DNA from: Promethearchaeia archaeon
Lineage (GTDB): Archaea; Asgardarchaeota; Lokiarchaeia; Sigyniarchaeales; SOKP01
Assembly: GCA_029856145.1 (NCBI GenBank)
Contig: JAHQWK010000024.1
Span: 1-64,000 of the forward strand
Length of the DNA stretch: 64,000 nucleotides
Direction: 5' to 3'
The notes under the pieces were generated by a model, which was not told where the DNA came from, did not search any database, and saw nothing but the letters and a program-made list of their open reading frames with translations. Below are positions 52,327 through 63,121 of this stretch, piece after piece; the first letter of the stretch is position 1, and every line of letters begins with the position of its first letter. A program made the translations under genes and the position numbers.

Positions 52327-52446
52327 TCTTAAAACTCTCCTTTTATATAGAATTTTTAGGTTTTGTATATAATAAAAATAAATTATTAAATGTTTTATAT
52401 TAATATTATTGCATTAGTTAAACTAAAGCAAATTTTTGTTTTTATC

Positions 52447-53520
52447 ATGAGTTATAAATTCTTAAAAACCGAAAAAACTCTAGTAGATAAGCAATTAGAA
52501 ATGTATTTTGCTAATTTACACAAGAAAGAAAAAGATATACTTCTAAATGATTTTATTAATCAACTTGAAGAATTCATTTTAAATGAAAAAGCGAAAAGAA
52601 TCCATCCTATTTTGTTGAATGCCGCTTTTGCGGGTATTGTAAATCCTATGTATTTAGAGGATCAAATAGAACAAATTCGTGAAGTGTCCATATCAGTCGA
52701 ATTATTACATAGCGGTCACTTAATACATGATGATCTCCTAGATAATGATGAGATAAGAAGGGGTAAACCTACATTTCATGTACAATTAAAAAATGAAATA
52801 AGTCAAGTGTACAAGGACTTAGAACTCCCTAATAAAGACGAGTTGAGTGGATTATATGGAAGGGATATGTCAATATTAGGGGGTACACAAGGATATCTTT
52901 TAGGTTTAGACATTTTAAAATCTTCAAAATTCCCAGAACAATTAAAACTCTTTGCTATTAATGAATATACACAAGCAATGGATTATTTAATGAAAGGACA
53001 GTTAGTAGAAGAATACATGAATTATCATAATATTACCATGACATTAGAACAATATTTGAATATAATGGAATTTCAAAAAGCAAGAATATTTGAAAAATCT
53101 ACAAAAATTGGAGCATTTTTGGCTAAAGGGAATCTTCATTATCAAATCAATCCTCTAAGTAATGCAATGTTACTTATTGGTCAAGCTCATGCAATTCGTG
53201 ATGATATTATTGATCTAGAAGACGACATTAAAGGAAAGCAGAAAAAAATCGTGTATATTTTAGCTATCTCAAATACTGATGAAGATCAGTCTAAGAGATT
53301 GAATGAAATATACCATAAAGATCATTTGACAAATAATGATGTAAAAGAAGCAGAAGATATCTTCACAAAAACCAATGCCTTAATGATTGCTGAACATTTA
53401 GCAAAAAATTTTATCGAACAAGCTAAAGATTCTCTTAAAGATATTTATCCAGATCTAAATAAAGAACAAAAAATGTTCTTTAGTGAATTTTCAGATTTTG
53501 TTTATACAAGAGAATTTTAG
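52447..53520 (+). CDS. Polyprenyl diphosphate synthase family (ATG 52447)
   Basis: ELLHSGHLIHDDLLD...RRGKPT (FARM), GQ, and RDDIID (SARM). Confidence 0.85.
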   Translation: MSYKFLKTEKTLVDKQLEMYFANLHKKEKDILLNDFINQLEEFILNEKAKRIHPILLNAAFAGIVNPMYLEDQIEQIREVSISVELLHSGHLIHDDLLDNDEIRRGKPTFHVQLKNEISQVYKDLELPNKDELSGLYGRDMSILGGTQGYLLGLDILKSSKFPEQLKLFAINEYTQAMDYLMKGQLVEEYMNYHNITMTLEQYLNIMEFQKARIFEKSTKIGAFLAKGNLHYQINPLSNAMLLIGQAHAIRDDIIDLEDDIKGKQKKIVYILAISNTDEDQSKRLNEIYHKDHLTNNDVKEAEDIFTKTNALMIAEHLAKNFIEQAKDSLKDIYPDLNKEQKMFFSEFSDFVYTREF

Positions 53521-53537
53521 AATTATCCTCTAATATT

Positions 53538-54134
53538 TTATACTACAACAAATGGAATATGTTGTTTTTTCAACATTAAGTTATTTAATTCTTTGAAAAC
53601 TTCTAAAACGTTTTGATTCTCCAAAGCAGATGTTCTAGCAAATCCATCTAATTTTCTTTTTTCTAAATATTCGGAAATCAAGGTATCATTAATAATTTCT
53701 GATTTTGAGGTTTTCTTTATTAAATCACTTTTACTCGCAACTAAAATTATTGGAATCTTTGAATCTATAGCATTCTCAATTATTATATCATACCAGAAAT
53801 CTAGTTGATTAAAAGATGGAAAATTCACTGAATCGAATACTAACAAGGCTCCATTAGCACCTTCTATAAATTTGGGGATTAATGGAGCAAATCTTTCCTG
53901 CCCTCCAAAGTCAAAAATCGAATTTACAACATAATTTTCCTTCTGTGGATTTATTTCTTTTGTAAAATTGATTTTTAAATAGACTGAATGAAAATTTATA
54001 CCAATTGTTGGAGAACTATCAAAACTAAATGAGTTAAAACAATAACGATTAAATAATGATGTTTTACCTACTGAACTGGCACCACAAATCACAGTTTTGA
54101 AACTAAATAATATATCTTTTCGATTATAACTCAT
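53538..54134 (-). CDS. Rab-like small GTPase
   Basis: G1 GASSVGKTS, G2 PTIG, G3 DFGGQERF, G4 SKSD and G5 SA. Confidence 0.9.
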   Translation of the reverse strand: MSYNRKDILFSFKTVICGASSVGKTSLFNRYCFNSFSFDSSPTIGINFHSVYLKINFTKEINPQKENYVVNSIFDFGGQERFAPLIPKFIEGANGALLVFDSVNFPSFNQLDFWYDIIIENAIDSKIPIILVASKSDLIKKTSKSEIINDTLISEYLEKRKLDGFARTSALENQNVLEVFKELNNLMLKKQHIPFVVV

Positions 54135-54604: not shown

Positions 54605-55513
54605 ATGGCTACTAAAATTCCACCTGATCAGATAGTTATTAGGCCTCCTGTAGAAGCTTATTCTGTTTTAATACCTGTAACAGGTGGATGTTCATGGAAT
54701 AAATGCCGTTTCTGTGGAACTTATAAAGGCGTATATGGAGTTTCCCAAGACTATGCTATACGAACTTTAGAGGATGTAAAAAAGGATATTGATAAATATG
54801 CTGAGAGTAATTATCATGGTTTTCCTGTATTTTTAGCAGGAGGTAATCCTACTTCCGCACCAACAGATTATTTAGTTGAAATTATTAAATATGTTAGAGT
54901 TAAGTTAAAAAATGTTCCACGAGTAAGTTGCTACGCTAAAGCTTTAGATGTTTTAAGAAAGTCAGATGAAGAATTAAAAGCGATAATGAATGCAGGATTA
55001 GATATAGTCTATATGGGATTAGAGAGTGGCTCAAATACCATATTAAGAATTATGAAAAAAGGAACTAATGCTGAATCTATGATAGAAGCAGGGAAGAAAA
55101 TTCTAAATGCTGGAATTAAACTTTCATTATATATCATTTTAGGATTAGGAAGTCATAAATATTCAGAAGAACATGTGAAAGAAACTGCTAGAGTGTTAAC
55201 TGAAATTAACCCAACTATTTTCCGGTTCAGAACCTTAAATATTTTACCTGGTACTCCACTTTGGGATGAATGGAAATCTGGTGAATTTAAACTATTGAGC
55301 CCATTGGAAAATATTACAGAAGAGAGAAATATCATAGCTAATTTAGGTGAAAATGTTACTTCTCAAGTCTTTAACGACCATGTGTCTAATTATTGTACGA
55401 TAGAATCTTCTAATATAAAAGTAGATCGAGAAATGTTTATAAAAACCTTAGATTCTTATATTAATGACCCAAAAATCCAAAACTTGCCAAGAAAAAACTT
55501 AATAAGAATGTGA
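54605..55513 (+). CDS. Radical SAM protein (paralog of 43864-44787)
   Basis: RPPVEAYS, CSWNKCRFC, YMGLESG and NDHVSNY motifs. Confidence 0.9.
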   Translation: MATKIPPDQIVIRPPVEAYSVLIPVTGGCSWNKCRFCGTYKGVYGVSQDYAIRTLEDVKKDIDKYAESNYHGFPVFLAGGNPTSAPTDYLVEIIKYVRVKLKNVPRVSCYAKALDVLRKSDEELKAIMNAGLDIVYMGLESGSNTILRIMKKGTNAESMIEAGKKILNAGIKLSLYIILGLGSHKYSEEHVKETARVLTEINPTIFRFRTLNILPGTPLWDEWKSGEFKLLSPLENITEERNIIANLGENVTSQVFNDHVSNYCTIESSNIKVDREMFIKTLDSYINDPKIQNLPRKNLIRM

Positions 55514-55544: not shown

Positions 55545-56621
55545 TTAAGCCTCAAGAACTTTATCCACCAGATCAATGAATTTTTTATATTTAGATATTG
55601 AACCTAAAAGGAATTCATATATTTTGTAAATCCGGGTATAACCATTTAATTTTTCCAAAGTATTTCTATTTTCCTCAAGTTCTAGTCTTAGTTTTTGTAA
55701 CTCATCATCCCATTTTGCCATTCTGTCAATAACGGTTCTAGAGAATTTTAAAAGGATTATTCCCGCGGATTCAGCACAATACGTAATTTTACCTTTAGGT
55801 GAAATATCTGATTTCTCTATTAATCCATTTTCTAAAAGTAAGTTTACTTCTTCAGAAATCTTCCCTGCTGACAATCCGGTGATCCTTTGTAATGTTTTTT
55901 GGGTAAGCAATTTTCTTGTAATAAAGTACACGAGAATCCTAATGAACATTGGATCTCGACTTGAAAACATGGGGGAAGTGGCAAGTTGATTTAACATATC
56001 ATCCTCAACTAAATAAACTTCTGGGTCAAAAGAAATCTTCTTCACTTCTTCTTCTCTTCTAATCAAATTGAAAGATTTTGAAGATATATCTTTCAATGTT
56101 TCATTAGTTGAATTTTCTATCAATATTGGAAATATAATTTTATAAATTTCAAAAGTTTCAAGCAATTCATCAATTCTATTTGAGAGATGTTGCGCTCCTT
56201 TTTTAGATTGCTCAATAAATTTTATCAATTCTTCCTTTTTATTTTTCAAATAAGTTTCTAAAGGACCAAAAGTACTTAATGCAATTTCAATCCCTCTTGT
56301 TGTAAGATCTTCAAGCTTGCCGGTAAATGAATATATAAATGTATGAGTGTGAGGAATACGTTCTTTTTGAAAAGTTCCAGTACCCGTCATAACTGATAAA
56401 ATTGTTGATATAGAGCCCATTGAGAATCCCGTTAACTTTTTTAATTCCTTCTGGGTTAAACTTTCATGAATTAGTAAATAAGAAGAAATCATAGATATCT
56501 TTGGATTAACTCTTTTACTTTGAGCAATATCTAATAAAAATTCTACAAGCTTATTTTCATATTTGCGAAGTTTATCACTAAAAAGATGACTAAAATTTTC
56601 TGTATCTTCTTCAACTGTCAT
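55545..56621 (-). CDS. Tandem two-domain GbsR/MarR-like winged-helix regulator
   Basis: Two HTH motifs: LTQKELKKLTGFSMGSIS and LTQKTLQRITGLSAGKIS. Confidence 0.85.
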   Translation of the reverse strand: MTVEEDTENFSHLFSDKLRKYENKLVEFLLDIAQSKRVNPKISMISSYLLIHESLTQKELKKLTGFSMGSISTILSVMTGTGTFQKERIPHTHTFIYSFTGKLEDLTTRGIEIALSTFGPLETYLKNKKEELIKFIEQSKKGAQHLSNRIDELLETFEIYKIIFPILIENSTNETLKDISSKSFNLIRREEEVKKISFDPEVYLVEDDMLNQLATSPMFSSRDPMFIRILVYFITRKLLTQKTLQRITGLSAGKISEEVNLLLENGLIEKSDISPKGKITYCAESAGIILLKFSRTVIDRMAKWDDELQKLRLELEENRNTLEKLNGYTRIYKIYEFLLGSISKYKKFIDLVDKVLEA

Positions 56622-56667
56622 TTCTTATTTAAATATAGGTTAAACAGGTTTATAAATGTTTTTATAT

Positions 56668-56682
56668 TTCAAACTTTATGAA
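56668..56682. promoter_or_regulatory. TTCA-N7-TGAA operator-like palindrome
   Basis: TTCAaactttaTGAA lies next to TTTATAAA (56649-56656), upstream of the fused regulator. Confidence 0.7.
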
Positions 56683-56753
56683 AGGTGAAGAAAGTTAAAT
56701 CTCTAATTTTTTTTAATTATCTTGATGAAGAAATTAAAAAAAAAGAAATTTTC

Positions 56754-56957
56754 ATGCCGGAAAAAGACACCAAATATAATCAAATTTTTGACATGGGGGA
56801 TGTGAAATATAAGAAATGCCCCGTTTGCAAAAAGACGCGGGAGTATCCAGATGAGTTTCAGCCTGAGAGTCTATGCGTCTTTTGTACCGAGGATATCTTT
56901 ACAGAGCCCGAGTTTTTTAAAATATATCTGAAAGCTATTAGAAAAGAATATGTTTAG
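56754..56957 (+). CDS. Small zinc-ribbon protein (ATG 56754)
   Basis: CPVC...CVFC, with GC content above the flanks. Confidence 0.55.
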   Translation: MPEKDTKYNQIFDMGDVKYKKCPVCKKTREYPDEFQPESLCVFCTEDIFTEPEFFKIYLKAIRKEYV

Positions 56958-57118
56958 CCTGTTCAGGATATGCACACTTATTTTTTTTCCAAGAACTAGC
57001 CAATAAATAATTAAGGAAAAATTAAAAGAAAATTATAGAATCTTTAGGATTAAGGTTTAATAAATAAATAGGATCCTACTATTTTTTCTACAGTTGTAAT
57101 TAATAATTCTTTATAATT

Positions 57119-57262
57119 TTCAAACTTTATGAAACAGAAGTTTGAGCTATGATTCTGTTGCAAAATTCGTTTCACGACTTTTGAAAAATAAAAACATTTA
57201 AATATGTAGTTGATTATAATATTAATGGGTTTCATAACTTTTGAAACTTAAAAAATTATGAA
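57119..57262. promoter_or_regulatory. Cluster of TTCA-N7-TGAA sites around a TATA box
   Basis: Perfect sites at 57119, 57171 and 57231, a one-mismatch site at 57248, and TTTAAATA at 57197-57204. Confidence 0.75.
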
Positions 57263-57292
57263 ACTTCACATTCCCACCAAGTGTGTAAAAAA

Positions 57293-58003
57293 ATGATTGA
57301 AATTATTTCTCAGGAAATATGGATTGGAGATATTGATGCTAATATCAAAGAAGTAAAACCTGAACATATTTATTCAAGATGGGTTTTATTAATTGCGGGT
57401 ATAAGTTATTTCATTGTATTTATTACAAGTATATTAATAGCAATCTTTCTAGGACCTTTAGGTTATAATCCTTATTTTAATGCGATTAGCGATTTAGGGT
57501 CGTCTCATATTACTCCTGTGGCATTTCTTTTCGATAGTTCATGTTTCATCAGTCCTGGGTTTATAATTCCTTCCTTAATTATAATAGAGAAGAGGGTAGC
57601 CCCTGAATCTTTTTTTAATGGAATTAAGAATAAGAGTGTATCATTAAAACAGAAATTTGCAGTCTTTGGAGTAGCCTTTGGACTTATTGGACTTATTGGA
57701 TTGATTTTAGTAGGAGTCTTTAGTTTAGATCGAGCAGGTCCAATGGGAATTTATCATGGGATTGCAGCAATATTAACTTTCGGAGGTTTTGTCCTTTGTA
57801 TTTTCATATTTACTTTATGTTTAATTTGTTTTCGAGGCGAAATATCTAAAGTTTATGCAATAGCCACATCTTTACTTCCTATTATTATGCTATTTTTGTG
57901 GTTTTATACGAGAATCTTAATTTTTGAGTGGCTCTCTTATTTGTCAATCTTATCATACCTACTCTTTTTTCATTTTACTAATTTTAAGAGGGGAGGTTGG
58001 TAA
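57293..58003 (+). CDS. DUF998-like multi-pass membrane protein (ATG 57293)
   Basis: GYNPYFNAISDLG, LVGVF and H..AA.L.F motifs, with about 6 TM helices. Confidence 0.75.
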   Translation: MIEIISQEIWIGDIDANIKEVKPEHIYSRWVLLIAGISYFIVFITSILIAIFLGPLGYNPYFNAISDLGSSHITPVAFLFDSSCFISPGFIIPSLIIIEKRVAPESFFNGIKNKSVSLKQKFAVFGVAFGLIGLIGLILVGVFSLDRAGPMGIYHGIAAILTFGGFVLCIFIFTLCLICFRGEISKVYAIATSLLPIIMLFLWFYTRILIFEWLSYLSILSYLLFFHFTNFKRGGW

Positions 58004-58236
58004 AATAGGGCTCTCTAACAGAAAAAATAATTATTGACTTATAAAAAATTAGTTTTTCAAGCCTTAAGAACATTAATTAATAACCTATTTTTATTTACTT
58101 TTGATTTTAAGAAATTTCTTGAATACTAAGACTTCCTTTTTTTTTATTACAAAAATAAATAATGTAGAGGTTTTAAGTTCTATTTTTAATTTATAAATGG
58201 AATTATTTTTTTAATTCAATTTATATAATTCGTAGA

Positions 58237-59541
58237 TTATATATCAAGGATTTCCTTCGTAATTGATAAGATTTCAACTTCATCAAACAAATTAGTCTTC
58301 CCAGTTTTTTTAAACAACTCAATTTGTTCATGATAAAGCGTTTCAAAAAGATTAGTAAGATAATTAAGTCTTTCCTTAAAACTTGAATCTGATGGTTTAA
58401 ATAGAAAACAGACTATTTCAATATATTTACCGTAAACGGCTTGAACATAGAGACCTTTATAATTAATTTCTTCCATTTTTGAACCCCCAATTTGAGTTAC
58501 AAATGAATCCATTGCTGTTAAAAAACCTGATACTAATGCTTGTTCCTTGAAATTTTCACTGGCATAATTTATAATTGGCGTTCCACTAGTCTTTTCTATT
58601 ATTATTAAATCTCTGAATATTTCCGAATATTTTGGTTGATTAGCTTCTTTGAGCATTAATTTATTATGTTCTAAGTCATTGTAAATATCAAATAATCTAA
58701 AGTTATATGAGTCAAACGAATTTGTTTCGTTGAAATAATAATCTGATAATTTTATAACTTGTGAAGGAGCTCTCATTGGTTCTTTTGGAAGCTTTTTAAT
58801 AAACTTATTTCGTATTTCAAGATCATAATTATCGTTCTTTTTTCCTTTTCTTACACCGTAAACTATTTTCCGTGATGGATCAACTACATAAAGCCAACAA
58901 TTCAAATCTTTCATGTCGTAAATTAAATTTTGTAATCCTAATTTAAGAACACCAATAGGAGTTGTTACAAAAATATTCCAACTCGCAACCTTTGCAGCTT
59001 CTTTTATTGATTCTTTTGTTTCAAGATAAGTCTTTTCATTAACATTAACACCATTCATGACGAATACAGCTGCGGTCTTTACTTTCGATTTTTTCATTGT
59101 TAAATACATGTCCATTTTAGGTGAAATTGAATCATAGGAGGTATTATGAACTGTTGTTTCGAGATCAGCACAATGATCTGCAAAAGTTTCACTTAAATCT
59201 TGCTTTGCTATGAAATCTAAATGATATAGATACCTCTTGAATGTTTTTGAATTAATGACTGCGTATCCACAATATTCCAAAGGGTTATCAAATCTTTTTT
59301 GCCAATCAGTTGAATTATATACATTAGTTAGGTGTGTTAAAATGAGTTTTATATATTCAAGTCTACTAACAAATGATTTTTCAGGAATAGTTATCCCATA
59401 ATCCGCAATAAATTCTAACAATTCTTGAATTTTGCAATTTATTAAAATATAATTAATAGAAAATAAACCAAATTTGCTTTTGCTTTTTTCTATAAGGTAT
59501 TGAATTACATTATCCTCAGTAATTTCAGTTTCAGCGCTCAT
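58237..59541 (-). CDS. Protein with a C-terminal longin-like domain
   Basis: LIIIEKTSG.PI...LVSGFLTAMDSF...EINY pattern, homologous to the cytoplasmic domain of 31885-36546. Confidence 0.7.
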   Translation of the reverse strand: MSAETEITEDNVIQYLIEKSKSKFGLFSINYILINCKIQELLEFIADYGITIPEKSFVSRLEYIKLILTHLTNVYNSTDWQKRFDNPLEYCGYAVINSKTFKRYLYHLDFIAKQDLSETFADHCADLETTVHNTSYDSISPKMDMYLTMKKSKVKTAAVFVMNGVNVNEKTYLETKESIKEAAKVASWNIFVTTPIGVLKLGLQNLIYDMKDLNCWLYVVDPSRKIVYGVRKGKKNDNYDLEIRNKFIKKLPKEPMRAPSQVIKLSDYYFNETNSFDSYNFRLFDIYNDLEHNKLMLKEANQPKYSEIFRDLIIIEKTSGTPIINYASENFKEQALVSGFLTAMDSFVTQIGGSKMEEINYKGLYVQAVYGKYIEIVCFLFKPSDSSFKERLNYLTNLFETLYHEQIELFKKTGKTNLFDEVEILSITKEILDI

Positions 59542-59846
59542 TTTTCCACTAAACCCATCAAATTAATATCTAGTAAATTGTACAACTTTTACACCTAGGT
59601 TCTTCTATACAAATTTTATCTAATTAATATATACTAGAAATATATCTTTTCGTGATATCCGTATATATAATTTCATAAAATTTACTAAGGAAGAATTTGT
59701 AAAAATAATGATTTAGATTGTTCTAGCCCTATTAAGCTTATAAAAAAAAAGAAAAATATGGAATAATTTTTAATAAATAAATGGAATTAATTTTTAAAAC
59801 TTTTTTTTTATTTGAAAATATTTTAAATTCTCAATTCCCTTATAAT

Positions 59847-60359
59847 TTATTTTTCAAGAGATGCTAGTTCTTTTTCTAATACTTCAATTACTTTCATAGT
59901 TAAGGGTAGAGATGCTGTAAGTAATGTAAGGAGCTCATAAACATCAGTATAGCCGTAGAGATTTTCTATTTCATTTTTCTCTGCATTCATTTCTTTTTTT
60001 AATTCATTAAGCTCATTATAAAAATCAAATATTTCTTTTTGCGAATTAAAAAAATTCTTAATAATAGCTTTTTTGGGAGAATCCATTGAATAAGTAATCT
60101 CGCCTGTTCTAGATATTTTAGATTTCTCAATAAATGCATTCTCAACTAGTTTTTTCAACTCCTGGGAAATCTTGCCTCGGGAAAATCCGGTTAGTTTATG
60201 TATCATATCTTGGGTTAGATTTTTCCTTGTAATGAAATAGGCCTTTATTGTGTAATATATGGACTTCTGAAAACCAAAAAGTGGAGCACTTAGTAGAAAT
60301 TCTATTAACTCACCTTCAAAGTTCTTGATCTCATCATCAAATGGCTCATTTTCACTCAT
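59847..60359 (-). CDS. GbsR/MarR-like winged-helix regulator (type B)
   Basis: YFITRKNLTQDMIHKLTGFSRGKISQEL. ATGA overlap with the upstream gene. Confidence 0.85.
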   Translation of the reverse strand: MSENEPFDDEIKNFEGELIEFLLSAPLFGFQKSIYYTIKAYFITRKNLTQDMIHKLTGFSRGKISQELKKLVENAFIEKSKISRTGEITYSMDSPKKAIIKNFFNSQKEIFDFYNELNELKKEMNAEKNEIENLYGYTDVYELLTLLTASLPLTMKVIEVLEKELASLEK

Positions 60360-61141
60360 GAGTTTTCCCTCCCAAGGCCTTTTACGAATTCTGAATCAGT
60401 GATTAAACCAACTATTTTGCGGTGAAATTCTAAAAAAGAGAGAATCCCTTGAATTCTTTCTAATAAAATTTTATGGCCTTTTCTGAACTGAAAAGGCTCT
60501 AAATTTATAATCATTGATTGTAAAAACTTTTTAGTATACTCATTTGTTTCAAATTTATAGACGCTCGTACCTGAAGCAATTGCTGAAAAATCTCCTCCTA
60601 AAGAATATAAATATTTTCTAGTCCCCTTAATCAATTCCTTTTTAAGAATTGGAGACGCTTCCATTAATTTCAAATTTTCAGAAATTGCACCCTTTGAAAG
60701 TCCTGTAAGCTCTTTCATTTGAGCCTGCGTTAAACCATTACGTTTATGTAAAAGTAGACAACCAATAATTGTGGCTAAAACATAATTTTGTCCTTTTAAT
60801 TTGCCTGCCCTTACGAAGAATTTAATAACTCTTTTTTCATATTCACGGATCTTTCCCTCAAACATGTGAGATTTTCTTTCCACGTAATCCGAATAATCTT
60901 CATCAAGTCTTCGATTAATAACATTCCATAATGATGTAAAATCTTCATTTGAGAGATCCAACTTATTAATTTTGTTTTTTAATTCGAGGATTAATTTTTC
61001 ATTCCATATTGGATCAGTAAGAAAATCTTTAAGTTTTTCTTTTAGTAATTTGATATGCCCACCTTTATTATTCTCCAAATAATTCTGAGCAATTTTACCT
61101 ATTATTTCCAATAAATTATTAATTTTCTTCTGATCAATCAT
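60356..61141 (-). CDS. GbsR/MarR-like winged-helix regulator (type A) with an N-terminal extension
   Basis: LTQAQMKELTGLSKGAISENL...GTRKYLY. Confidence 0.85.
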   Translation of the reverse strand: MIDQKKINNLLEIIGKIAQNYLENNKGGHIKLLKEKLKDFLTDPIWNEKLILELKNKINKLDLSNEDFTSLWNVINRRLDEDYSDYVERKSHMFEGKIREYEKRVIKFFVRAGKLKGQNYVLATIIGCLLLHKRNGLTQAQMKELTGLSKGAISENLKLMEASPILKKELIKGTRKYLYSLGGDFSAIASGTSVYKFETNEYTKKFLQSMIINLEPFQFRKGHKILLERIQGILSFLEFHRKIVGLITDSEFVKGLGRENS

Positions 61142-61214: not shown

Positions 61215-61325
61215 TTTAAAGATTATGAATTTCATAGATTGTGAAGTTCATAGGAAATGAAAATATTTAAATATGCAATTTCACTCTTAATAATTGTAAG
61301 ATCTACTATTTTCATTATAAATGAA
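61215..61325. promoter_or_regulatory. Cluster of TTCA-N7-TGAA sites in the divergent regulator/ABC promoter
   Basis: Perfect sites at 61231, 61247 and 61311, a one-mismatch site at 61215, and TTTAAATA at 61266-61273. Confidence 0.75.
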
Positions 61326-61352
61326 AAATAAAAACAATAAAGGTTGATAAAA

Positions 61353-62309
61353 ATGAATGCTATAGAGGTAAAAAATCTAATAAAATATTATGACAAAGGA
61401 AAAATTAAAGCTGTAGATGATATTTCATTTGAAGTGCCTCGAGGCTCTCGATTTGGTTATTTAGGACCAAATGGAGCTGGAAAAACTACCACGATTCGAT
61501 GTATACTTGGTTTTCTCAACGCAGATGCGGGAGATATTACAATATTAGGTGAAAAGATTAATCCAAAAAAAGATGTAAAAATTCGGAATCATATTGGATA
61601 TTTACCCGGCGAATTGGGACTATATAAAAATATGACCGCAAATGATTTGATTAATTATTTTGCGAAGCTCTATGATATTGAAATAGATTGGAATTTTGTT
61701 AAAGAAGTAACAGAACGTCTTAAATTAGATATGAATCGAAAATTGGGCGTATTAAGCAAAGGTAATAAACAAAAAGTTGGTGTATTATCAGCTCTTATGG
61801 GAAAATTTGATGTGCTTATTATGGATGAACCCACTTCAGGACTTGACCCATTGATGCAATTAGAATTTTATCGAATTGTATCTGAGAGACAGAAAGAATC
61901 AAAATGCACCGTATTTCTTTGTAGCCATGTGCTCGCAGAGGTAGAAAAATTCTGTGATAGAGTTGCAATCATAAAGAAAGGAAAAATTGCTGAAATATCT
62001 GATGTAAATGATCTAAAAGCAAAAAATTTGAAACATATAGAATTGATTTTTGAAACTCCAGGTAGTATGGAAGCATTTAAATCTCTTTTAGAAACTGAAT
62101 ATTCTGAATCAATCATAAAATATGAATTCCAGACTCAACTTGAATTTTTATTACCCCCTCATCAAGCCCGGAAAATATTATGTGAAATTAGCGAAAGAGA
62201 CTGGGGTGGTGTTCCTGTAAAAGACTTCTCGATTAGACATTCCACACTAGAGAATATTTTTATGCAATATTATGAAGAGGGCAAATCAAAAGGAGGTAAA
62301 ATCGCATGA
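61353..62309 (+). CDS. ABC-2 type transporter ATP-binding protein (ATG 61353)
   Basis: GPNGAGKTT, LSKGNKQK, MDEPTSGLDP and CSH motifs. Confidence 0.93.
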   Translation: MNAIEVKNLIKYYDKGKIKAVDDISFEVPRGSRFGYLGPNGAGKTTTIRCILGFLNADAGDITILGEKINPKKDVKIRNHIGYLPGELGLYKNMTANDLINYFAKLYDIEIDWNFVKEVTERLKLDMNRKLGVLSKGNKQKVGVLSALMGKFDVLIMDEPTSGLDPLMQLEFYRIVSERQKESKCTVFLCSHVLAEVEKFCDRVAIIKKGKIAEISDVNDLKAKNLKHIELIFETPGSMEAFKSLLETEYSESIIKYEFQTQLEFLLPPHQARKILCEISERDWGGVPVKDFSIRHSTLENIFMQYYEEGKSKGGKIA

Positions 62310-63121
62310 AAGTATTGCAGATTGTATGGAAAGAATTAAAGAAGGATTACAAAAGTCTCTTAATTTTCACAGGTATTATGTCCCTTTTCTTCATGTGGTT
62401 TGTAACTTTTTTTGATCCTGAGCTATTTGCGGGTTTGGAGGAAGTTTTTGAGAGTTATCCGGAAGCAATCCGACAGATGATTGGAGAGTTTTATAATCTC
62501 GCTGAATTTGGAGGTTTTCTTAACGTTTATTTATTTTCAATGTCGTGGTTCTACTTTGGAATATATTTTATTTTAAAGTCAGCACAGAACATCCCAAAAG
62601 AGATAGAGGATAAAACAATTGATTTGGTGTTGTCAAAGCCTATCCCACGGACGGAGTTTACTCTAGGTAAGTATCTAACCCATATAATCGAAATATTATT
62701 AATTTATTATGGTGTCATGATGAGCGTTCTTTTAGGAATATTGATATTTCCATCTGTAACTATCAATGGTATCTTTTTGAATGAAATAATTTTCGCATTT
62801 CTATATAATTTTATTTTTATGGTTACATTAATAAGTACGGGGTTCTGTTTCTCTACTTTCTTATCTTCTAAAAAGGCATTAGCTTTAGGGTTAGGGGTGG
62901 TGATATTTTTCTACGCTGTAGGTCAATTTTGGAAATCATTTCCCGAAGTAGCACAAGAAATTAAACGTATCAGCATATTTTTCTATTCAGACATGTCAAA
63001 TCTTCTCGTAAATCATGTTTGGGATAACGTCGGATTACATATTTTAGTCCTTTTAGGCTATTCTGTAGTATTAACAACATCTTCGGTTATAATATTTAAT
63101 AAACGGGATATTCCCGTCTAA
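62306..63121 (+). CDS. ABC-2 type transporter permease
   Basis: Six TM helices, EIEDKTIDLVLSKPI.R motif and F.KRDI C-terminus. ATGA overlap with the ATPase gene. Confidence 0.9.
   Translation: MKVLQIVWKELKKDYKSLLIFTGIMSLFFMWFVTFFDPELFAGLEEVFESYPEAIRQMIGEFYNLAEFGGFLNVYLFSMSWFYFGIYFILKSAQNIPKEIEDKTIDLVLSKPIPRTEFTLGKYLTHIIEILLIYYGVMMSVLLGILIFPSVTINGIFLNEIIFAFLYNFIFMVTLISTGFCFSTFLSSKKALALGLGVVIFFYAVGQFWKSFPEVAQEIKRISIFFYSDMSNLLVNHVWDNVGLHILVLLGYSVVLTTSSVIIFNKRDIPV

Follow-up and report, generated by a model that had tools for sequence, protein, structure and literature searches.

The window analysed here is a stretch of 64,000 nucleotides from a Promethearchaeia archaeon (contig JAHQWK010000024.1), AT-rich with a GC content of ~30%, and it carries three related genes on one strand, here called A, B and F. 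A and B are adjacent and encode two paralogous winged-helix proteins, and F encodes a single chain with one module of each type. We consider it probable that A and B form an obligate heterodimeric regulator of the GbsR/Mj223 type, within the MarR superfamily, that F is a paralogous single-chain pseudo-dimer, and that these proteins bind TTCA-N7-TGAA operators, with local repression as their most likely mode of action. MarR-type one-component regulators of prokaryotes are textbook homodimers. A family fixed as two subunits, and repeatedly fused, would show how symmetry breaking and heterodimerization of paralogues arise in transcription factors, in the archaeal lineage nearest to eukaryotes. 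We found no description of heterodimeric GbsR/MarR regulators, or of Asgard regulators of this kind, in the searchable literature.

A preliminary description of this locus had reported three open reading frames (ORFs), and all three are present on the minus strand (Table 1). It had also aligned the N-terminal half of F with A and the C-terminal half with B, in the same order. BLASTP reproduces both alignments: A residues 79-249 align to F residues 3-169 (30% identity, E = 3e-17), and B residues 7-167 align to F residues 198-358 (35% identity, E = 6e-30). Because the cross matches are weaker (C-half of F with A, 7e-05; N-half of F with B, 3e-11; A with B, 4e-10; N-half with C-half of F, 6e-07), the correspondence of the N-half to A and of the C-half to B, and the order that they share, are real and far beyond chance. 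In BLASTP, the crosswise matches and the match between A and B are confined mainly to the helix-turn-helix; in a profile-profile comparison, the homology of A and B spans the whole module (probability 99.1%, E = 8.7e-19, 154 columns). The ATGA overlap noted earlier for the split genes can be read directly in the sequence, where the stop codon of A (...TCA TGA) shares its letters with the start of B (ATG AGT). A GGGAGGG purine run, similar to a Shine-Dalgarno sequence, lies just 5' of the B start, and together the overlap and the purine run are as expected for translational coupling of A and B.

The idea that these genes are split and fused versions of the same pair holds in part. The two subunit types and their order are the same, but F is only 30-35% identical to A and B and is thus a paralogue of the pair, from a separate old lineage, rather than a fusion of the same genes. 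The true split orthologues of F lie in other genomes, where they are clean split pairs, again with 4-nt overlaps (loci L021, L022, L053 and L054). The domain tree rules out that F arose by joining the A and B genes of this window, as it places F in a different clade with its own split orthologues. A search of the genome from which the window comes (3.55 Mb, 32 contigs) yielded no family member beyond A, B and F.

The pairing of the two types extends across the family. We assembled 37 loci from a scan for B-type motifs, using one genome per species, and added the window to give 38 loci, in which ORFs were called and scored with hidden Markov models (HMMs) of A, B and both halves of F. Each of the 41 split B-type genes has an A-type gene immediately before it on its strand. 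The distance between the two is -8 to +77 nt, and in 19 pairs it is the 4-nt overlap. No lone family member was found among the 38 loci, as the two unpaired matches are both F genes truncated at contig ends; here, the earlier expectation that A and B always occur as a pair held. Several paralogous classes exist, often as neighbours within one locus. They comprise the window's class, in which A has 260 aa, two classes with chains of ~171 + 171 aa, the F class and, as a second fused class, chains of ~370 aa. Single divergent fusions also occur, one of them in Lokiarchaeum ossiferum (L038).

Close relatives of F form ~100 clusters of 54-98% identity and ~355 aa in metagenome-assembled genomes of Lokiarchaeia and other Promethearchaeota, and the relatives of B and A form 114 and 16 clusters, respectively. 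A scan of 301 genomes of the phylum, 109 of which had a match, was the source of members from other Asgard families, both split and fused, the latter 347-394 aa long. The B profile was also searched against 1.84 billion representative proteins, with 350 matches at E <=0.001. Among the best 150 of these, which were typed, 92 have the order A-B, one is ambiguous (A-A) and 57 are short B-only proteins; the order B-A was found in none of the 93 two-domain proteins in this group. Few of the B-profile matches carry a name, and those that do are all Asgard.

The two types also separate in phylogenies. In a maximum-likelihood tree of 122 domains, one branch, with a support of 93 in the Shimodaira-Hasegawa-like approximate likelihood-ratio test (SH-aLRT), parts the 61 upstream or N-half domains from the 61 downstream or C-half domains; shuffled labels need ~41 changes on the same tree. 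With other Asgard families added, all 52 downstream domains form one clade (SH-aLRT 98). The preliminary description had predicted separate A and B clades, and this is what the trees contain, with no intermixing. The A and B subtrees hold the same sub-clades, and in a mirror-tree comparison the patristic distances of A-type domains correlate with those of their partners (r = 0.78, compared to a maximum of 0.23 in 2000 permutations). The fused or split state changes at least five times on each subtree. On its A side, the extended tree also contains a separate clade of four lone single-domain proteins. These single-module relatives (L049-L052, from genomes G242, G136 and G241 of other Asgard families) are 165-193 aa long, lack a neighbouring partner gene, and possibly reflect an ancestral state in which the regulator was a homodimer.

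Membership of A, B and F in the GbsR family (COG1510, with Mj223 as template) is distant at best. Pfam and NCBIfam searches of the window's proteins gave these three only weak winged-helix matches (MarR_2, DUF7343, TrmB). F scores above the Pfam MarR_2 cut-off (32 bits, cut-off 27) and A and B below it, and the GbsR-type NCBIfam model CudC matches A (E = 5e-6) with 26.5 bits, far under its 218-bit cut-off. The sole significant Protein Data Bank (PDB) match of the F-family profile is Mj223 of Methanocaldococcus jannaschii (PDB 1KU9; E = 1.8e-4, residues 37-149 of the 152-residue chain), and many family members are labelled 'GbsR (MarR family)' by JGI. Near full-length fold matches to one module are limited to 1KU9 (Z 9.9, 142 of 151 residues) and 4NB5 (Z 9.2, 136 residues). 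The remaining fold matches are generic winged-helix heads, with those of MarR, MexR and MepR at Z ~10 and a root-mean-square deviation (rmsd) of 1.3-2 Å.

AlphaFold models F as one compact two-module body, with a predicted local distance difference test score (pLDDT) of 87.5 and a predicted template modelling score (pTM) of 0.83. The modules, at residues 16-168 and 200-357, are joined by a lower-confidence linker (~169-199) and share a build of a helix, a winged helix-turn-helix and long helices, with the order helix-helix-helix-strand-strand in both halves. As modelled, F is a single chain whose two homologous winged-helix modules pack against each other as a pseudo-dimer. Folded alone, A has a pLDDT of 77 and a pTM of 0.42, with four helices at residues 4-89. 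This four-helix extension of ~85 aa (A residues 1-85, window 60887-61141), with conserved Trp46 and Trp72, is found solely in the window's pair class and never on B, and it matched no family in Pfam or NCBIfam.

The predicted DNA target of the family came from motif discovery, in which an alignment of divergent regions across loci revealed conserved TTCA-N7-TGAA palindromes. The window contains nine such sites compared to 4.4 expected, and seven of the nine are in three intergenic regions of the A/B/F locus. Over all loci, there are 122 sites in the 13.0 kb upstream of family genes (9.4 per kb) compared to 32 sites in the 548 kb elsewhere (0.058 per kb), an upstream enrichment of ~160-fold; shuffled versions of these upstream regions average 0.47 sites and never hold more than 3. 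The divergent regions between ABC transporter and regulator genes hold 66 of the 154 sites, and the motif also adjoins the distant members L048, L053 and L054. Control regions have 2-4 sites at conserved spacings, namely 16 and 64 nt in the A region of the window, and 7-nt overlapping sites in the commonest pair class. This operator enrichment upstream of family genes, like the position of A-B pairs divergent from ABC-2 exporter operons described below, is new in this analysis. Together, the palindrome, the exporters and the predicted autoregulation make up the first specific proposal of a cis-element and a regulon for regulators of Lokiarchaeia.

The motif pooled from 97 unique sites is (T)TTCA(T)-N5-(A)TGAA(A), symmetric except at one spacer position. 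An asymmetric operator, which could have served as a signature of a heterodimer, therefore found no support. Since the operator core is two-fold symmetric, the way in which the DNA would be read gives no sign of subunit specialization. The symmetric motif fits the recognition-helix motifs of A and B, which are near-identical (LTQ..L..LTG.S.G.IS). Among the sites associated with F, the one at 57119 is identical to the one at 56668, as part of an identical 17-mer, TTTCAAACTTTATGAAA, found at 56667-56683 and again 451 nt away at 57118-57134. The F-associated sites have ACTTT in the spacer in common, a possible paralogue-specific determinant.

The complex of A (residues 85-261) with B was modelled with an interface score (ipSAE) of 0.77, compared to 0.00 for the best control. 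A score of 0.77 is met by 58 of 80 solved complexes and by 2 of 110 mismatched pairs. Contacts agreed between model runs by at least 81%, and the partner pLDDT was at least 86. The predicted interface involves residues 91-118 and 199-256 of A and residues 6-31 and 94-164 of B, that is, in both chains the N-terminal helix together with the C-terminal helices, an arrangement known from MarR dimers. The model supports binding of A to B but does not demonstrate it, and the repeated interchange of split and fused states is a stronger argument than the model: the fused chain necessarily has a 1:1 ratio of A to B, and in its model the two halves pack compactly within the molecule. The preliminary description had cast A and B as distinct, specialized subunits and F as a single-chain pseudo-dimer, in a Rosetta-stone argument. 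That proposal fits all of the computational tests run (pairing, clades and the A:B model), except that F is not the fusion of this pair and that the operator shows no subunit specialization.

Several considerations weigh against a heterodimeric repressor. Modelling of complexes cannot separate a heterodimer from a homodimer, as close cousins of true partners pass, and the success of the A:B model may reflect memory of, or likeness to, solved MarR dimers. A mirror-tree correlation is expected for any two tightly linked genes. Given the lone relatives in other Asgard families, the fold can presumably homodimerize. The loci were gathered with B-type motifs, so that the absence of A alone is less well tested than the absence of B alone. 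A two-fold symmetric operator does not require two different DNA heads. The choice of repression over activation, and a ligand, are proposed purely by analogy, and physical pairing of the chains, binding to the motif and regulation are predictions.

Alternatively, A and B could be co-transcribed tandem paralogues that form the homodimers A2 and B2, act on the same or neighbouring operators in response to different effectors, and, when fused, dimerize through A:A and B:B contacts. Known GbsR/MarR proteins are homodimeric (PMC6207618; 1KU9), as would suit this explanation, and symmetric operators in groups of 2-4 per promoter and the existence of lone single-domain relatives also speak for it. 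We nevertheless consider it unlikely, given the strict 1:1 co-occurrence in a fixed order throughout the family, the fusion and fission changes (at least five) in which neither type was lost, a monomer model of F that packs its own halves together (pTM 0.83), and an A:B model that passes its controls. Slightly less probable still is a higher-order assembly, either A2B2 or a dimer of F, that bridges operator copies and loops the divergent control region, with A:B as its building block. The 2-4 sites per control region at conserved spacings are consistent with such an assembly, but no result here favours contacts between units, and it extends the heterodimer explanation rather than opposing it. 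It is highly improbable that the proteins, instead of being gene-specific regulators, are parts of a general machine made of winged helices in series and related, for instance, to TFIIE or to RPC82/RPC62 of RNA polymerase III, a subunit with four extended winged helices and a coiled coil: RPC82/RPC62 chains rank first in Foldseek (E = 2e-5) and the conservation of F (54-98% identity) is unusually high for a local regulator, but these top matches have a template modelling (TM) score of 0.23 and an rmsd of ~25 Å, realignment of RPC82 with VIA (Z 9.8, rmsd 12.3 over 137 residues) did not uphold them above the level of generic winged helices, Pfam HTH_9 gives E = 0.92, and divergent transporter operons, a specific palindrome at the genes' own promoters and several paralogues per genome are traits of local regulators.

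In the heterodimer model that we favour, an old duplication within Asgard archaea would have given rise to the A and B types. These would thereafter have been inherited only jointly, in the order A then B, as translationally coupled neighbours or as fusions. The A:B unit would offer two similar DNA-reading heads, and would bind the TTCA-N7-TGAA palindromes of its own promoter, a region that in most loci also serves a divergent ABC-2 exporter operon. Its most likely mode of action would be that of a local repressor, released by a ligand, of the pump and of itself. A broader proposal is that there is a lineage-wide Asgard class of obligate heterodimeric or pseudo-dimeric MarR/GbsR factors, with several orthogonal A:B pairs per genome, in which symmetry is kept at the DNA heads and broken in the body, so that each regulator has one asymmetric effector or partner site. 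We see the chances of this broader proposal as evenly balanced. If true, the logic of paralogous heterodimers that is typical of eukaryotic transcription factors would have a prokaryotic precedent among the closest relatives of eukaryotes. The fused and split pairs offer a natural set of cases on which to study how paralogues achieve interface specificity. The A, B and F proteins are small and soluble-looking, and in vitro study is possible without growing the organisms.

The gene neighbourhood suggests what the regulators may control. We predict that the ABC-2 exporter operon divergent from A and B is the main target. Homologues of its ATPase were found by ORF clustering in 34 of the 38 loci, and homologues of its permease in 33. 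The layout permease < ATPase < A > B > occurs in most of the 38 loci, and nearly always where ABC homologues occur. In five loci (L007, L024, L026, L035 and L036), F has a divergent ABC pair of its own. Synteny with the window extends over a backbone of IMPDH < ABC < A > B > ... F > radical-SAM < small GTPase >. For F in the window, the 240-aa membrane protein is a candidate target.

Table 1. Genes, protein parts and operator-like sites of the A/B/F locus (window coordinates)
Feature	Position	Strand	Evidence and remarks
A subunit gene, 261 aa	60356..61141	-	ORF; A-HMM 431 bits; member of the upstream-domain clade
Parts of A			residues ~1-89, four-helix N-terminal extension; residues ~90-250, A-type GbsR/Mj223-like module (winged helix + C-terminal helices)
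B subunit gene, B-type module, 170 aa	59847..60359	-	ORF; B-HMM 238 bits; member of the downstream-domain clade
F, fused A-type + B-type single chain, 358 aa	55545..56621	-	HMMs of the F halves: FN 324 bits, FC 299 bits
Three operator-like sites	61231-61245, 61247-61261, 61311-61325		between A and the ABC ATPase gene; positions kept in orthologous regions of L004-L013
Operator-like site	56668..56682		in the gap separating F from the divergent 90-aa ORF; 47-61 nt before the start of F
Three operator-like sites	57119, 57171, 57231 (to 57245)		upstream of the gene for the 240-aa membrane protein
ABC-2 exporter operon: DrrA/GldA-like ATPase 61344-62309, ABC-2 permease 62306-63121	61344..63121	+	Pfam ABC_tran and ABC2_membrane_2, NCBIfam; divergent from A-B
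Predicted membrane protein, 240 aa, no known family	57281..58003	+	preceded by three operator-like sites
ORF of 90 aa, CxxC...CxxC, zinc-ribbon-like	56685..56957	+	divergent from F, common operator region; homologues in L004 and L024

Other neighbours hint at the substrates of the pumps. Genes of the second fused class (~370 aa) are divergent from a 439-aa gene resembling condensation-domain proteins and alcohol acyltransferases, with TTCA-N7-TGAA sites in common. The acyltransferase-like genes belong to cluster c12 (L020:3146-4465, L022:159-1574, L024 and L026). A membrane methyltransferase similar to ICMT/PEMT is another recurrent neighbour (cluster c5, L025:4739-5419). The acyltransferase-like and ICMT/PEMT-like genes hint at a pump substrate that is lipid-like or is a modified hydrophobic compound.

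Comparison with known systems places the family near, but apart from, characterized regulators. GbsR-type proteins, for which Mj223 is the family template, have been described as homodimers, and some of their genes adjoin transporter genes (PMC6207618). Like GbsR and Mj223, each module of A, B and F has an N-terminal helix, a winged helix-turn-helix and C-terminal helices predicted to serve dimerization. However, GbsR is a homodimer of one gene product, whereas in the present family two diverged paralogous modules are invariably found as a pair or as a fusion. The genes next to them encode ABC-2 exporters rather than Opu-type osmoprotectant importers; an aromatic cage for trimethylammonium inducers is a trait of the osmoprotectant subgroup of GbsR only. 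The named members of the present family are Asgard, whereas the archaeal GbsR members known in 2018 were all from Euryarchaeota.

The nearest architectural precedent is the two-domain type represented by SarS of Staphylococcus aureus (PDB 1P4X), which, like F, has two homologous winged-helix modules in one chain that mimic a dimer of its one-domain relatives. SarU and SarY are further two-domain homologues of SarA. SarS differs in being bacterial, in belonging to another MarR branch and in lacking the long C-terminal helices; 1P4X is among the Foldseek matches, with 303 aligned columns, a TM score of 0.21-0.29 and an rmsd of 18.6, a low structural score that does not show homology to F. We know of no split two-gene A+B counterpart, and of no family-wide A/B specialization, among the Sar proteins. 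MarR, MexR and MepR resemble the family as local winged-helix dimers, some of which control efflux, and match its winged helix in fold, but are homodimers. The classical efflux regulators of the MarR family are typically encoded beside the efflux genes that they repress, and have palindromic operators. In E2F/DP, two paralogous winged-helix subunits with helical dimerization regions function exclusively as a heterodimer, and their DNA site is nearly symmetric. We draw this comparison as an analogy and claim no homology; no search made with the family proteins gave a sequence or fold match to E2F/DP.

Some further features of the locus deserve mention. One more TTCA-N7-TGAA site (52573-52587) lies inside the 5' part of a 376-aa ORF (52390-53520) that looks like a polyprenyl synthase by its DDxxD-type motifs. 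Sites are also present inside the homologous gene of L023 and L036, and this is either a conserved internal site or the result of a mis-called gene start. Between B and F, the minus strand encodes a 434-aa protein (58237-59541) with no Pfam or NCBIfam match, homologues of which occupy the same position in six other loci (cluster 17: L005, L023, L030, L031, L034 and L035). Directly downstream of F are a radical-SAM protein (54605-55513, plus strand) and a Ras/Roc-like small GTPase (53538-54134, minus strand; Pfam Ras, 2e-28). Each of the two has homologues in 16 of the 38 loci, where F > rSAM < GTPase > is the usual order.

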